A stretch of DNA of 64,000 bases, taken from NCBI GenBank assembly GCA_963933065.1, contig CAWVUB010000001.1, positions 1,508-65,507 on the forward strand, given 5' to 3'. Below are positions 16,765 through 23,463 of this stretch, one piece after another. The notes beneath the pieces are model-generated. The model saw only the letters and a list, made by a program, of their open reading frames with translations. It did no database searches and had not been told where the DNA came from. The position numbers and the translations under genes were made by a program. The stretch comes from an uncultured Acidimicrobiaceae bacterium. Lineage in GTDB: Bacteria; Actinomycetota; Acidimicrobiia; Acidimicrobiales; MedAcidi-G1. Numbering within the stretch: position 1 is the stretch's first letter; every line of letters starts with the position of its first letter.

Positions 16765-16860
16765 TGGCGGAGGTGGACGGGAATCGAACCCGCCGGACGG
16801 GGATCGCCCGTCCCACCCGCTTTGAAGGCGGGGGAGCCCACCAGGTACTCAGACACCTCC
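16765..16860 (-). tRNA. selC: tRNA-Sec (anticodon UCA)
   Basis: The reverse complement reads GGAGGUGU-CU-GAGUAC-CUGGU-GGGCUC-C-CCCGC-CUUCAAA-GCGGG-UG-GGACGGG-CGAUC-CCCGUCC-G-GCGGG-UUCGAUU-CCCGU-CCACCUCC-G-CCA. This gives a 7-nt anticodon loop with UCA, an 8-position acceptor, a 6-position D stem, a 7-bp extra arm, a GUUCGAUUC T-loop, G73 and an encoded CCA. The 5' boundary is ambiguous by 3 nt (an upstream GGC could pair with the GCC of the tail). Confidence 0.8.
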
Positions 16861-19034: not shown

Positions 19035-20372
19035 ATGGCCGGCCAGGAACCTGCATCGAAAAGCACCTGGTTAGGTAGCGACAGACCGCTGGCGCGCACT
19101 ATTGGGCGACCTGTCAGGCGGTTTCTGGGTATCGAAGCAGCTGGTGGAATCCTGCTCATGGTGGCCACGGTGGTAGCTCTCGTCTGGGCAAACTCGCCTT
19201 GGGCGGGTGGTTATGAGGACCTCTGGCGCACCGAGTTTCATCTGGGTGTTGGTGAGTTTCGACTGGAACATCACGGGCATCCGCTGACATTGGTCCAGTT
19301 GGTGAACGATGCCCTGATGGCGATCTTCTTTTTCGTGGTGGGCCTAGAAATTAAACGCGAACTGGTTGATGGTCACCTCCGTAATCGGCGAGCCGCCCTC
19401 CTCCCAGCCGCCGCTGCACTCGGTGGCATGGTTGTCCCGGCGCTCGTCTTCTTCGCATTCAATCCGGCGGGTGATGCATCAGCTGGATGGGGTATACCTA
19501 TGGCTACCGACATTGCTTTCGCCGTGGGTGTCCTGTCCTTACTAGGCGACCGGATATCGACGCCTCTCAAGGTCTTTCTCCTGTCGCTGGCCATCGTTGA
19601 TGACATCGGCGCAATCGTTGTGATTGCCGTCTTTTACACCAACGACTTAGCTAGTGAGTGGCTGGTGCTGGCTGGGGTTGCCACCTTCGCTGTGGTTGTT
19701 TTAAGTCATTTCAAGGTCTGGTACACGCCGTTATACATACTGCTCGGGTCGATTCTCTGGTACGCCATGTTCCGTTCCGGCGTGCACGCCACTATCGCTG
19801 GAGTAATTATGGGTTTGTTGGCCCCAGCGGGTGCCCTCCTAAAACCCGGTGAGGTGGCACCCATTGACGTCAGGTCTCTCGATGCGGACGGCCTTCGGTC
19901 GGCAAGGTTCCGGATGAACGAGTCAGTGTCGGTGGCGGCTCGTCTTCAGAACCAACTACACCCGATTACTGGGTTCGTAATTATCCCAGTTTTCGCATTA
20001 GCCAATGCAGGCATCTCGCTCAGTGGAGATTCGTTGCGCGATGCGCTGGGTTCCCCAGTGACCATCGGTGTGGCCCTCGGCTTGGTGGTCGGCAAGGTGG
20101 TGGGAGTCACTCTGTTCAGTCTTGGGGCGGTACGCCTGGGTATTTCAGCACTTCCGTCAGGCGCCACTGCCCGGCATATCGTTGGGGTGGCAGCCATTTC
20201 TGGTATTGGTTTCACCGTGTCGCTTTTCGTGACCGGGCTGGCTTTCGACAACCTCATCCTGCAAGACGAGGCAAAAGTAGGCATCCTCGTTGGCTCGATC
20301 ACCGCTGCCCTACTGGGTGTGTTGATCTTGCGAGGGACCCGCCCAGCTGACAATGGAGAACAATATGGGTGA
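19035..20372 (+). CDS. nhaA: Na+/H+ antiporter NhaA
   Basis: 445 aa, polytopic. LSLAIVDDIGAIVVIAVFYT and PVFALANAG are NhaA motifs. Confidence 0.9.
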   Translation: MAGQEPASKSTWLGSDRPLARTIGRPVRRFLGIEAAGGILLMVATVVALVWANSPWAGGYEDLWRTEFHLGVGEFRLEHHGHPLTLVQLVNDALMAIFFFVVGLEIKRELVDGHLRNRRAALLPAAAALGGMVVPALVFFAFNPAGDASAGWGIPMATDIAFAVGVLSLLGDRISTPLKVFLLSLAIVDDIGAIVVIAVFYTNDLASEWLVLAGVATFAVVVLSHFKVWYTPLYILLGSILWYAMFRSGVHATIAGVIMGLLAPAGALLKPGEVAPIDVRSLDADGLRSARFRMNESVSVAARLQNQLHPITGFVIIPVFALANAGISLSGDSLRDALGSPVTIGVALGLVVGKVVGVTLFSLGAVRLGISALPSGATARHIVGVAAISGIGFTVSLFVTGLAFDNLILQDEAKVGILVGSITAALLGVLILRGTRPADNGEQYG

Positions 20373-23300
20373 CGCACTGGTCATTGTTGAGTCCCCGGCA
20401 AAGGCCAAGACAATTGCCGGGTACTTAGGTGAAGGCTTCGTTGTGGAGTCGTCAATCGGTCACATCCGCGATCTGGCTAAAGCCTCTGAACTGCCTGAGG
20501 AATTCAGGAAAGAATCCTGGGCGTCCATGGGGGTAAACGTCAATGACAATTTCGAAGGTTTCTACGTTGTGCCTTCTGACAAGAAGAAGCAGGTGGCACA
20601 TCTCAAGCGTCTGATGAAAGACGCCGATGCGCTTTATCTGGCGACAGATGAGGATCGTGAGGGCGAGGCCATTGCATGGCACCTGCTGGAGGTTCTTAAA
20701 CCCAAGGTCCCAGTTCACCGAATGGTATTTCACGAGATCACCAAGGGGGCCATAACCGAGGCGTTGGAAAATACCCGAGACATAGACCATGACTTGGTGT
20801 CGGCTCAGAGGGCTCGCCGAAAACTCGACAAGCTTTACGGTTTCGATATCTCGCCCGTGCTTTGGAAAATGATAGGCCGTGGCCTTTCAGCTGGTCGAGT
20901 CCAGAGTGTGGCCACTCGGATGATCGTGGAACGAGAACGTGAGCGAATGGCCTTCACGTCAGCCGACTACTGGAATCTGACGTGTGTGATGGTTACCGGA
21001 TCAGGAGCTGGCTTCACGGCTCGACTTTTGGAGTTGGATGGTCGTCGTGTGGCACTGGGGCGTGACTTCGGTGATGACGGACAGCTAACACGGGCCGATG
21101 TCCTAGTGCTGGACGAGGTGTCGGCGAGCGCAGTCCGAGACAATCTCAAGGGACGGCCGGCAATCGTGGAGTCTGTCGAGCCCAAGCCGTTTCGTCGCCG
21201 ACCGCCGGCTCCGTTTACCACGTCGACCTTTCAGCAGGCAGCAGGCAGCCGCCTAAAGCTCTCAGCCTCACGGGCCATGCACGCCGCCCAGGGCCTATAC
21301 CAGAAGGGCTACATCACCTACATGCGTACCGACAGCACGACGCTGTCAGACACCGCTGTCCGGGCTGCCCGACAGGCAGCCACCGAACGCTTCGGTGGCG
21401 ACCACGTTCCTGACGCCCCACGTGCTTACACCAACAAGGTCCGCAACGCCCAGGAGGCCCATGAGGCCATCCGCCCAGCTGGCGATCGCTTCCGCCACCC
21501 CGACACTGTGCGAGGCGAACTCCCGAAATCTGAGGCTGATGTCTACGAGATGGTCTGGTGTCGAACTGTTGCTTCCCAGATGACCGATGCCGTTGGTGAG
21601 ACGGTTCGGTTCCGAATGGGAGCCAGCTTGCCCTCATCTGCGGTCGCGGTTCATGCCACGTTTGTAGCCAGTGGCACCGTCATCCACCATGAGGGATTTC
21701 GACGGGTCTACCAAGAGACCCAAGAAGATCCACCCCGTCGAGGCCCTGAGACAAAGAACTCTGAGGAAGATGATGCTGCCGAGTTGACGCTCCCCGCAGT
21801 CACAGTGGACGAGTCGGTAGACGTGACATCAGCCACCGCTGAGGGCCACGAAACTACGCCGCCTGCGCGGTACAGCGAGGCATCTTTGGTAAAGGGTATG
21901 GAGCAGCATGGTGTGGGGCGGCCCTCCACCTACGCCTCGATCATGGAGACCATCCAAAAGAACTACGTGTTCAAGAAGGGCACGGCGCTGGTGCCCACGT
22001 TGAGTGCCTTCGCCGTTACCAATCTGCTGGAGCGACACTTCCCCCGGTTGGTCGATTTTGATTTCACGGCAGCCCTAGAAGACGAACTTGACGCTATTGC
22101 TAACGGTGAACTGGATTTCGGCGATTTACTGAATGCCTTCTATTTCGGATCAGACAAGGACGAGGGTCTGCATAAAAAGGTCACCACCCGTCTGGGAGAC
22201 ATCGATCCCCGAGGTGTCAGCACAATCGAACTAGGGGTGACGTCGGACGGTGAGCCAGTGGTAGCTCGCTTCGGCAAGTTTGGGCCATATGTAGCGGTGG
22301 ATGATGAGACGGCCTCGATTCCTGATGATGTTCCGCCTGACGAGCTGACGGTGACTCGCGCACTCGAGTTTTTGAACGCACCTGCCGATCGTGAACTCGG
22401 CACCGATCCGGAGACCGGGCTCGTGGTGGTAGCCCGATCCGGGCGGTTTGGTGCCTATGTTTCGCTCGGTCGACCGCCGGATCGCCCCACTCCATCTTCA
22501 CCAGAAGGTCAACTTATGGCCTTACCGGGCAACAAAAAGGAACTGCGTATTGCTCTTGGCTACCTACGGCTAGCCGCCGGACGTCTGGACATGTCTGTCG
22601 CTCGACAGGTGTTGAACGTACCGAAACGCGGTGTCAGCTCAGCAGCCATAAAGAAGGTGGCTGAGGCAGTCGACGCTGGCCAGTCGATAATTGATGTCCT
22701 GCACGACCCGGAGTCTCTTGGCATTTCAGCTAAGGCCTGTACTGGTATTGCTGCTTTCTTGGCCTTAGGTGAGGAGTTGGCGGTGTTGCATTCAGAAGGC
22801 CCACGGGCCATGGTCGGAGGAGCAATCGAACTTTCGGGCTACGGCGCAGAAATCCGGTCCGCCGATGATGGGGGTGCCGCCCGACTAGAGAATCTGGAAA
22901 AGTTAGCTGACGCCGCTGGCAGATTTGAGAGTTTGGAGTCGTTGCTCGACGAGATGGATCGACAGTCCGAAGCCGATGACCGTCCGAGGCCCAAGACAGC
23001 ATCCCTCTTCCAGACGATGACAGTGGACCGGGTCACTTTTGAGGAGGCTCTCGAACTATTGAGTCTGCCTCGGATTGTTGGTGCCGACCCGGTCGACGGG
23101 GTGGAAGTCACCGTGCATAACGGGCCGTACGGTCCGTATCTCAAGAAGGAGTCTGATAGCCGCAATATCGAAACTGAAGAGAAGCTGCTCACTATCACGC
23201 TCGAAGAGTGCCTTGCGCTGTTGGCCCAACCTAAGCGTCGTGGTCGTACCGCTCCGAAACCACCGTTGCGTGAACTTGGTGTGGATCCGGAGAGCGGTAA

Positions 23301-23463
23301 GACAATGGTACTTAAGGACGGAAACTGGGGTCCGTACATAACCGACGGTGAGTACAACGCGTCGTTGAAGCGGGGTGACGCCGTCGAGGAACTTACCGAT
23401 GAGCGGGCTGCCGAACTTTTGGCTGAACGCCGTATGAAGGGTCCCGCTAAGAAGAAGCGTTGA
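20365..23463 (+). CDS. topA: DNA topoisomerase I (type IA) with an unusual internal insert
   Basis: TOPRIM (LVIVESPAKAKTI, ATDEDREGEAI), active-site region (GYITYMRTDS) and four C-terminal repeats (GKFGPYV, GRFGAYV, GPYGPYL, GNWGPYI) plus a basic tail. ATG 20365 is preferred as the start (GGAGAA RBS); the ORF opens at 20353. Confidence 0.9.
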   Translation: MGDALVIVESPAKAKTIAGYLGEGFVVESSIGHIRDLAKASELPEEFRKESWASMGVNVNDNFEGFYVVPSDKKKQVAHLKRLMKDADALYLATDEDREGEAIAWHLLEVLKPKVPVHRMVFHEITKGAITEALENTRDIDHDLVSAQRARRKLDKLYGFDISPVLWKMIGRGLSAGRVQSVATRMIVERERERMAFTSADYWNLTCVMVTGSGAGFTARLLELDGRRVALGRDFGDDGQLTRADVLVLDEVSASAVRDNLKGRPAIVESVEPKPFRRRPPAPFTTSTFQQAAGSRLKLSASRAMHAAQGLYQKGYITYMRTDSTTLSDTAVRAARQAATERFGGDHVPDAPRAYTNKVRNAQEAHEAIRPAGDRFRHPDTVRGELPKSEADVYEMVWCRTVASQMTDAVGETVRFRMGASLPSSAVAVHATFVASGTVIHHEGFRRVYQETQEDPPRRGPETKNSEEDDAAELTLPAVTVDESVDVTSATAEGHETTPPARYSEASLVKGMEQHGVGRPSTYASIMETIQKNYVFKKGTALVPTLSAFAVTNLLERHFPRLVDFDFTAALEDELDAIANGELDFGDLLNAFYFGSDKDEGLHKKVTTRLGDIDPRGVSTIELGVTSDGEPVVARFGKFGPYVAVDDETASIPDDVPPDELTVTRALEFLNAPADRELGTDPETGLVVVARSGRFGAYVSLGRPPDRPTPSSPEGQLMALPGNKKELRIALGYLRLAAGRLDMSVARQVLNVPKRGVSSAAIKKVAEAVDAGQSIIDVLHDPESLGISAKACTGIAAFLALGEELAVLHSEGPRAMVGGAIELSGYGAEIRSADDGGAARLENLEKLADAAGRFESLESLLDEMDRQSEADDRPRPKTASLFQTMTVDRVTFEEALELLSLPRIVGADPVDGVEVTVHNGPYGPYLKKESDSRNIETEEKLLTITLEECLALLAQPKRRGRTAPKPPLRELGVDPESGKTMVLKDGNWGPYITDGEYNASLKRGDAVEELTDERAAELLAERRMKGPAKKKR

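Follow-up and report, generated by a model that had tools for sequence, protein, structure and literature searches.

Accessory elements in the C-terminal part of the bacterial enzyme topoisomerase I (TopA) are known from several lineages. In mycobacteria, the loop between strands β3 and β4 of the second C-terminal repeat (D6), which belongs to the region that binds the passing (T) single strand, carries a positively charged insertion of ~20 residues, which is disordered in the crystal structure of Mycobacterium smegmatis TopA (6PCM) and was proposed to add DNA affinity. The topA gene studied here (20353..23463, + strand) is encoded in a stretch of 64,000 nucleotides from an uncultured Acidimicrobiaceae bacterium (contig CAWVUB010000001.1, positions 1,508 to 65,507; this whole stretch is referred to as the window). 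In its product the same loop, likewise accessory to the T-strand-binding C-terminal region, is occupied by an insert which, unlike the mycobacterial one, comprises ~170 residues, is acidic and helicase-derived, and is folded according to structure prediction. The protein is almost certainly an ordinary actinobacterial TopA that has captured a complete 2B subdomain of the PcrA/UvrD1 type, extending from the 2A-2B to the 2B-2A hinge, in the β3-β4 loop of D6.

The 2B subdomain is otherwise known from the superfamily 1A (SF1A) helicases PcrA, UvrD, UvrD1 and Rep (PDB entries 1PJR/3PJR, 2IS1-2IS6/3LFU, 4C2T, 9DCI and 1UAA). In helicase monomers its GIG motif contacts the duplex at the junction of single-stranded (ss) and double-stranded (ds) DNA; when helicases dimerise, the 2B-2B interface is built from this region of the surface (PMC11912403). 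The TopA insert resembles these subdomains by homology over the whole subdomain, by its all-α fold and overall acidity, by the signatures E..[AL]AYLRL, P.RG[IV]G, SGY and R..NL..L, and by adjacent N- and C-termini, which render it an insertable unit. Unlike its helicase counterparts, it does not reside inside a RecA-like domain 2A and is accompanied by neither domains 1A, 1B and 2A, nor ATPase motifs, nor a Tudor tail.

Further likenesses exist to (i) the Lys-repeat tails of Streptomyces TopA, a lineage-specific C-terminal addition which stabilises the TopA-DNA complex and confers processivity (PMC5714199), (ii) the TopA of Chlamydia, which gained a foreign folded domain in its C-terminal region (PMC12445093), and (iii) reverse gyrase and RecQ-Topo III, in each of which parts of helicase descent work together with a type IA topoisomerase. 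While the 2B insert may tune DNA affinity or processivity as the Streptomyces tail does, the latter is a low-complexity basic sequence of experimentally shown function, whereas the insert is a folded domain of predicted function. The SWIB domain of Chlamydia is of other origin and appended at the protein end rather than placed within a repeat. Reverse gyrase and RecQ-Topo III employ a complete superfamily 2 motor, fused or as partner, as opposed to a motor-less SF1A subdomain inside a repeat. No UvrD-, PcrA- or otherwise helicase-derived TopA insert was found in reviews of type IA C-terminal domains, in a study of actinobacterial C-terminal domains or by targeted full-text searches. Sequences of this TopA-2B type are public and catalogued; the architecture itself appears to be undescribed, in agreement with the initial reading of the window, a sequence-only reading made without database searches.

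Insert of TopA and helicase 2B subdomains

The 2B-type subdomain proper (aa 728-876, 22534..22980, + strand, as are all other parts of topA) was delimited by sequence searches, structure prediction, Foldseek comparison and conservation; it is all-α and retains a remnant of the GIG motif (P757-K-R-G760-V-S). The sequence-only reading had likened precisely this segment to the 2B region of UvrD/PcrA/Rep, and the coordinates it gave hold the sequence it quoted. When searched alone against the PDB sequences, the insert matched only SF1A helicases, all of them at the 2B subdomain: PcrA (residues 388-525, E=3.6e-11), Deinococcus radiodurans UvrD (391-526, 1e-7) and Mycobacterium tuberculosis (Mtb) UvrD1 (411-548, 1e-6), followed by weaker matches to Escherichia coli UvrD (385-527, 7e-5) and, weakly, to Rep. 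The NCBIfam model pcrA was matched at E=5e-13, solely at model positions 381-520, and uvrD at 8e-10. With a profile of 20 diverse TopA inserts, the matches improved to 2e-28 for PcrA (389-527), 1.5e-25 for D. radiodurans UvrD, 7e-25 for UvrD1, 8e-22 for E. coli UvrD (385-520) and 1e-12 for Rep, and the profile found no match outside SF1A. An exhaustive phmmer search with the insert against 1.84 billion representatives yielded 527 matches. The top three are TopA-type proteins; all others among the best 150 represent PcrA/UvrD helicases, with the match at residues ~385-545, except for two TopA fragments (P0052, P0064) and a membrane protein (P0038).

The structural comparison points in the same direction. 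An AlphaFold model of aa 706-890 (53-sequence alignment) is all-α with about 10-11 helices, at a mean predicted local distance difference test (pLDDT) value of 88.2 and a predicted template modelling score (pTM) of 0.81. All Foldseek matches to the PDB with a probability of at least 0.77 (31 of the top 33) represent UvrD, PcrA, UvrD1, AddA or AdnB, and no unrelated fold was retrieved above a probability of 0.5. Query-based template modelling scores (TMq) of the best matches ranged from 0.59 to 0.69, and the closest superpositions had root-mean-square deviations (rmsd) of 2.3-3.8 Å over 129-174 columns. Homology spans from the R-[KR]-E-[IL]-K-D..AYLRL segment that opens 2B to a closing helix of the F..L..[LF]L[DE]E type. 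Since the match runs from hinge to hinge, the whole 2B subdomain was taken.

As already noticed from the sequence alone, motifs of a helicase motor are missing: the TopA open reading frame (ORF) has no match to Pfam UvrD-helicase, AAA_19 or UvrD_C_2, and its score against NCBIfam pcrA amounts to 43-48 bits at a cut-off of 911. The insert-bearing TopA is accordingly not a helicase. The checks proposed with the initial reading all spoke in its favour, with one caveat from Pfam. UvrD_C (PF13361) matched 14 of 20 related inserts at E<=0.01 (best 7e-8), but the window copy only at 11.5 bits (E=0.2), below the gathering threshold of 25.6 bits. This model covers 2A plus 2B, of which a lone 2B can match only a part, and the sub-threshold score may be the reason why automated annotation misses the insert; some public sequences already bear an automated PF13361 tag. 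No second 2B or helicase gene was detected by tblastn in the 64-kb window. An intein or mobile element as origin of the insert was considered but has no support, there being no Hint or intein match in TopA and no compositional anomaly. Inteins (Hint/Intein_splicing) were observed in the motor domains of the helicases P0017, P0019, P0030, P0049 and P0072, which belong to the PcrA/UvrD proteins nearest to the insert.

Insert-less TopAs of Acidimicrobiales read GRFGPYVSLGEV-TDDGPRPKTASLF at the insertion site, with ~9 residues between the conserved flanks, as compared to about 171-174 residues in the same interval of the window TopA. The extra segment, from ~R707 to D877, is real as initially reported, but the length of 150 residues given for it becomes about 170 when the linkers are included. 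These are an N-terminal linker (aa 706-727, GRPPDRPTPSSPEGQLMALPGN; 22468..22533), Pro-rich, well conserved in the alignments and modelled at a pLDDT of ~78-80, and a C-terminal linker (aa 877-881, DRPRP; 22981..22995) recognized by alignment with insert-less TopAs. In the full-length AlphaFold model (82-sequence alignment, pLDDT 84.2), D6 is composed of β1 (679-684), β2 (691-697), β3 (700-705), the helices of the insert (717-876), β4 (882-884) and a crossing helix (896-903). The insert is thus modelled in the β3-β4 loop of repeat 2, with a complete D6 fold predicted around it; the original placement within repeat 2 is correct, whereas the assumed junction directly between hairpin and helix is not. 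The N-terminal part of D6 (β1-β3, aa 679-705, motif GRFGAYV; 22387..22467) is aligned to residues 724-737 of 6PCM and the C-terminal part (β4 and crossing helix; 22996..23067) to residues 758 onward, so that the insert takes the place of residues 738-757 of M. smegmatis TopA. The initial statement that mycobacterial TopA has only a short basic linker at this site is also correct. The insert is in frame and complete, is flanked by the two halves of one 57-residue repeat, and cannot be distinguished from its flanks by GC content or skews.

Apart from the insert, the ORF (1036 aa plus stop, from the ORF list) corresponds to a normal TopA. It scores 709 bits against NCBIfam topA_bact (TIGR01051; cut-off 456) and comprises a TOPRIM domain (aa 9-129, 20377..20739; PF01751, E=9e-23) and the type IA cleavage/strand-passage core (aa 144-592, 20782..22128; PF01131, E=2e-105) with the motif GYITY323MRTDS. 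Across the 82-sequence alignment, E13, D99-E100-D101 and Y323-S328 are invariant; Y323 is presumably the catalytic Tyr, by analogy with E. coli TopA. Toprim_C_rpt (PF13368, E=1e-60) appears in five Pfam stretches because repeat 2 is split in two. The motif G-x-[FYW]-G-[PA]-Y occurs four times (aa 641, 697, 924 and 990), and secondary structure assignment (DSSP) of the model yields four C-terminal units of β1-β4 plus α, the second of them broken between β3 and β4. Besides repeat 2, Pfam, the motif scan and DSSP delimit repeat 1 (D5, GKFGPYV; 22216..22380), repeat 3 (D7, GPYGPYL; 23071..23226) and repeat 4 (D8, GNWGPYI; 23263..23439), and comparison with relatives assigns GPAKKKR (23440..23460) as a short basic tail, preceded by a further Lys. 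The core, the four repeats and the tail had all been recognized in the sequence-only reading. In structural comparison with solved TopAs, the full-length model matches 6PCM at E=1e-73 and superimposes on Mtb TopA with a target-based score (TMt) of 0.87 and an rmsd of ~3.5 Å. From its sequence and predicted fold the protein qualifies as TopA, and relaxation activity is predicted for it.

When read from its first ATG, topA overlaps the final 20 nt (20353-20372) of the upstream ORF for an NhaA-type antiporter (19035-20372). Relatives and the identical public protein P0160 (1032 aa) begin at M5, the Met at 20365, which is probably the true start.

Distribution, descent and conservation of the insert

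Among the best 120 clusters (90 % identity) retrieved with the whole TopA, 65 carry the insert at the same site; these proteins comprise 1019-1043 aa, except for three truncated or partial ones, and their inserts share 24-100 % identity. Members are found on hundreds of marine contigs from metagenome-assembled genomes (MAGs) at NCBI and from JGI, ENA, Logan and Tara, including an Acidimicrobiales MAG with 96 % identity (L001). On a 71-kb contig (L003) and a 40-kb scaffold (L004), unbroken full-length ORFs are embedded in the same NhaA-topA-MFS-tmk-holB synteny. Other TopAs of Acidimicrobiia (859-935 aa; e.g., L002) have no insert. Within its clade the insert is common, as revealed by the orthologue alignment (at least 65 clusters), and is contained in databases. 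A common and annotated feature would have been deemed unremarkable at the outset; public entries, however, are plainly named 'type I DNA topoisomerase' of an Acidimicrobiales, Acidimicrobiaceae or Actinomycetota bacterium, with no description of the insert.

Several public gene calls of ~315 aa which begin at the counterpart of M722 of the window TopA (P0001-P0008, P0012; 6001-6951 in L003 and 4663-5610 in L004), labelled 'hypothetical protein', represent truncations of topA. One of these fragments (P0012) was named PcrA by JGI because of the insert. A separate ~315-aa gene or a split topA starting at M722 was rejected, since the loci hold continuous full-length ORFs.

A neighbour-joining (NJ) tree of 2B segments (68 TopA inserts, 139 helicase segments and three PDB references) unites all 68 TopA inserts in one clade. 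Together with the identical site, this indicates a single capture, which most likely occurred in the ancestor of a marine Acidimicrobiales clade. The nearest helicases are PcrA/UvrD1 types with a Tudor tail, and the best helicase match is encoded in a guaA-pcrA-sucCD-purH neighbourhood. While the names of the helicase clusters are uninformative, the pcrA-sucCD-purH part of it is known from mycobacteria, and this gene context of the best match, the sole basis for an assignment, points to a donor helicase of actinobacterial origin.

A further protein with a 2B segment outside helicases is P0038 (L006, 5001-8267), a polytopic membrane protein of 1088 aa encoded in a glycosyltransferase/exopolysaccharide cluster on a 3.1-Mb contig. 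Its segment (aa ~776-930) is very helicase-like (RREIKD, NRPKRGIG, RLENLAEL) and not accompanied by motor domains. Its sequence cluster consists of three proteins, encoded on contigs 0.3-3.1 Mb long. P0038 is either a second non-helicase host of 2B or a fusion artefact.

In NJ trees of the TopA backbone, the insert-bearers form a monophyletic group with insert-less TopAs of 864-868 aa, as opposed to all other insert-less TopAs, in 200 of 200 bootstrap replicates. Monophyly of the insert-bearers to the exclusion of this 864-aa group was recovered in only 12-20 %, and the group possesses 36 of 49 residues diagnostic of the insert clade. Therefore, a secondary and precise loss is favoured: the 864-aa lineage probably lost the insert, a scenario with moderate support from NJ trees only. 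A recent clean deletion, suggested by the pair P0204 (with insert) and P0229 (without; 91 % identical), was rejected, P0204 being chimeric; this protein and the comparison of nucleotide junctions were left out of account. In P0204 (965-4024 in L007), aa 5-550 share 99.2 % identity with the 864-aa lineage that has no insert, while for the C-terminal part identity is 94.7 % to a lineage with insert; its 4.7-kb contig, at 3x coverage, results either from mis-assembly or from natural recombination.

Ratios of non-synonymous to synonymous substitution (dN/dS) are 0.12-0.49 for the 2B part versus 0.03-0.22 in adjacent TopA regions. The 2B part is accordingly under purifying selection, which is 2-6 times more relaxed than in its neighbours. 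The N-terminal linker of the insert is strongly constrained (0.05-0.18). Within the clade, insert identity drops to ~24-30 % with no sign of decay, and the length stays at 170-186 aa.

Residues common to inserts and helicases comprise E730, Y737-L-R739, D746, P757, G760, A772, G829-Y830, R844, N847-L848, L851 and F858. In 29 non-redundant inserts, motif IVc or GIG motif (P-x-R-G-I-G) takes the form P(0.93)-[KR]-R(0.93)-G(0.97)-[VI](0.97)-G(0.66)/S(0.28) (fractions in brackets), followed by Lys (0.69), as compared to Asp or Glu in helicases. A basic residue is likewise kept at the positions of D. radiodurans UvrD R392 (0.90) and of the minor-groove contact R459 (0.65). In that helicase, mutation of the first Gly of the GIG motif (G424T) impairs DNA binding while mutation of the second (G426T) does not (PMC3797037). 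The window copy, reading P-K-R-G-V-S, retains the first Gly; DNA binding by it is putative.

Constraint has become relaxed at other positions where helicases show invariance or strong conservation, namely D733 (changed to Val), N743/P744, R752, E846 and E850. The positions of E846 and E850, strongly conserved in helicases (0.81 and 0.91), presumably serve inter-domain contacts there and are no longer conserved in TopA inserts. Conversely, K729, V733, an L740-A-A run, G776, G798, P817, E826, E833, E849 and E867 are newly conserved in the inserts. Mean net charges are similar (-6.7 in inserts, -6.1 in helicase 2B). A redox-controlled dimerisation via a Cys of 2B, as in Mtb UvrD1, is unlikely: C796 of the window copy lacks conservation, and opposite C451 the inserts have Lys or Arg.

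The C-terminal tails of TopA differ as well. They have 3-23 aa and a net charge of +5.5 in the insert clade, versus 30-73 Lys-rich residues and +17.5 in insert-less outgroup TopAs; in the 864-aa loss group the tail has 8-17 aa and a net charge of +7. In addition, T556 and R565 in the last helices of domain D4 (22018-22047) and R1007 in D8 (23371-23373) were observed to be specific to the insert-bearing clade, with the loss lineage reverting to the V, N and K of the outgroup. These few positions may form a docking surface for the insert.

Possible roles of the insert

The reading favoured at present, tentatively and at somewhat less than an even chance, is that the insert acts as a tethered anchor for duplex DNA or the ss/ds junction. 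The 2B module, held by its two Pro/Arg-rich linkers beside the ssDNA-binding face of D6, would keep the one activity that it has on its own in helicase monomers, i.e., gripping the duplex backbone through the helix-loop-helix of the GIG motif. With the unpaired T-strand gripped by D6 and D7 and the duplex next to it by 2B, the enzyme would stay fixed where single strand and duplex meet in an underwound bubble, and the anchor would partly substitute for the long Lys-rich tail by which related TopAs stay on DNA. This reading is favoured because the loop has a history as a putative DNA-affinity site, the Arg and Gly of the GIG motif are kept, Asp has switched to Lys behind it, and the tail has shrunk. 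The basic residues at the positions of R392 and R459 and the lost conservation of E846 and E850 are also in line with it.

Several observations weigh against such an anchor. The insert is acidic overall (net charge -6.7), and the motif of the window copy is weakened (PKRGVSSAA), its second Gly being replaced by Ser and the following Lys missing. Arg at position 752, invariant in helicases, is found in only 45 % of the inserts. By analogy with helicases, which hold the duplex jointly by 2B, 1B and a hairpin of 2A, an isolated 2B may be a weak binder. Moreover, according to recent work the contact of 2B with the duplex has a regulatory or autoinhibitory role, and 2B is mainly a hub for dimerisation and for partners (PMC11912403, PMC13238157). 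The link between tail and insert rests on a single evolutionary event, and the 864-aa lineage persists with neither insert nor long tail. Finally, purifying selection could reflect just the need to keep the insert folded in an essential enzyme.

Rather unlikely, but next in standing, is a function as protein-docking handle, in which 2B would pair, through the 2B-2B interface, with the 2B of the cell's PcrA/UvrD, or else with a 2B-binding protein (e.g., MutL) or another TopA molecule. TopA would thereby be recruited to the helicase, which would possibly be activated, and unwinding would be coupled to relaxation. The 2B subdomain indeed forms the dimer interface of UvrD-family helicases and is the target of their activators MutL (acting on UvrD), PriC (on Rep) and RepD (on PcrA) (PMC11912403; PMC13238157). 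Also in line with docking, the 'LG[VI]' loop and the segment behind the GIG motif, both located at the dimer interface of Mtb UvrD1, are at least as conserved in the inserts as in helicases, and the 2-6 times faster evolution of the insert protein relative to its neighbours is expected of a surface that coevolves with a partner. The closest helicases are of the PcrA/UvrD1 types, one of them in the pcrA-sucCD-purH synteny. Type IA topoisomerases have repeatedly been paired with helicases, as exemplified by reverse gyrase and RecQ-Topo III, and this recurrence speaks for docking too. However, the inserts do not share the Cys through which Mtb UvrD1 dimers are cross-linked, having Lys or Arg at position 768, and retention of the Arg and Gly of the GIG motif is more simply explained by DNA contact. 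A special form of docking, to be regarded as very unlikely, is that the TopA-borne 2B acts as a decoy which pairs with the 2B of a PcrA/UvrD monomer by way of the conserved 2B-2B interface, relieves its autoinhibition and ties a 3'-5' SF1A motor to the topoisomerase. If true, bacteria would have here a non-covalent analogue of reverse gyrase or RecQ-Topo III, of possible use, e.g., in the removal of R-loops behind RNA polymerase.

Clearly unlikely, and ranking between docking in general and its decoy form, is that the insert represents a tolerated passenger, which arrived in a permissive surface loop by illegitimate recombination and is conserved only for foldability, with no added activity. 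The loop is known to be permissive, considering the disordered insertion in the M. smegmatis structure and its variable length; judging from helicase architecture, the adjacent termini of 2B should allow insertion or removal without disturbing the host fold. That one lineage probably lost the insert cleanly and persists, that dN/dS exceeds that of neighbouring regions, and that P0038 exists as a second odd, non-helicase host of 2B would also fit a passenger. On the other hand, the insert was retained without decay over a deep clade (identity down to ~24-30 %, lengths of 170-186 aa), and the charged or polar residues K729, E826, E833, E849 and E867, probably surface-exposed, are conserved only in TopA inserts. 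The GIG motif is kept and the N-terminal linker strongly constrained, and overall the conservation patterns exceed what foldability requires.

Still less is to be expected of an intramolecular regulator, a highly improbable role in which the acidic 2B would swing on its linkers, dock on basic or DNA-binding surfaces of TopA (D8, the basic linkers or the final helices of D4 are proposed as sites) and gate T-strand loading, comparable to the gating of helicase activity by 2B. This idea could draw on the net charge of about -7, on the conservation of E826, E833, E849 and E867 specifically in TopA inserts, on the co-variation of T556, R565 and R1007 with insert presence (a weak lead) and on the nature of helicase 2B as a swivelling autoinhibitory domain (PMC11912403; PMC13238157). 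The co-variation concerns only 3-5 positions on a tree of moderate support, though, and regulation is compatible with the other readings rather than exclusive of them.

The probability of an assembly or annotation artefact, i.e., a chimeric contig joining topA to a helicase gene, is negligible: metagenomic contigs can be chimeric, two topA lineages are indeed joined in the relative P0204 and several public gene calls break at M722, but the insert lies in frame and complete between the halves of one repeat with no compositional break, the short calls are due to runs of N, ambiguity codes or contig ends, and its presence at one and the same site in at least 65 clusters, with hundreds of contigs contributed by independent projects, excludes the chimera that the initial reading had asked to be checked.

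Genomic setting and significance

In the window, topA is flanked by the gene for the NhaA-type antiporter on one side and by genes for a major facilitator superfamily (MFS) protein, tmk and holB on the other. The sole Rfam match of the window is a selenocysteine tRNA gene (16769-16860, - strand; RF01852, 67.5 bits, E=1e-11), which implies selenoprotein machinery in this Acidimicrobiales genome.

The insert has practical consequences for annotation, as it leads to mis-calls in public databases, i.e., fragments named 'hypothetical protein' and one PcrA label. For SF1A helicases, the role of 2B is debated between duplex grip, autoinhibitor and dimerisation or partner hub. The insert-bearing TopA provides a natural, motor-free '2B-only' construct, which lets the lone subdomain be tested for duplex binding, dimerisation and partner recruitment, and the insert-less sister lineage offers a ready natural design for a deletion variant. 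With regard to the topoisomerase family, the β3-β4 loop of D6 emerges as a site of very different accessory elements, as mycobacteria have a basic peptide there and the marine Acidimicrobiales clade a folded domain of helicase origin. This domain has long been retained in an abundant marine lineage, and its combination with a shrunken Lys tail suggests that T-strand handling and processivity can be tuned in more than one way.

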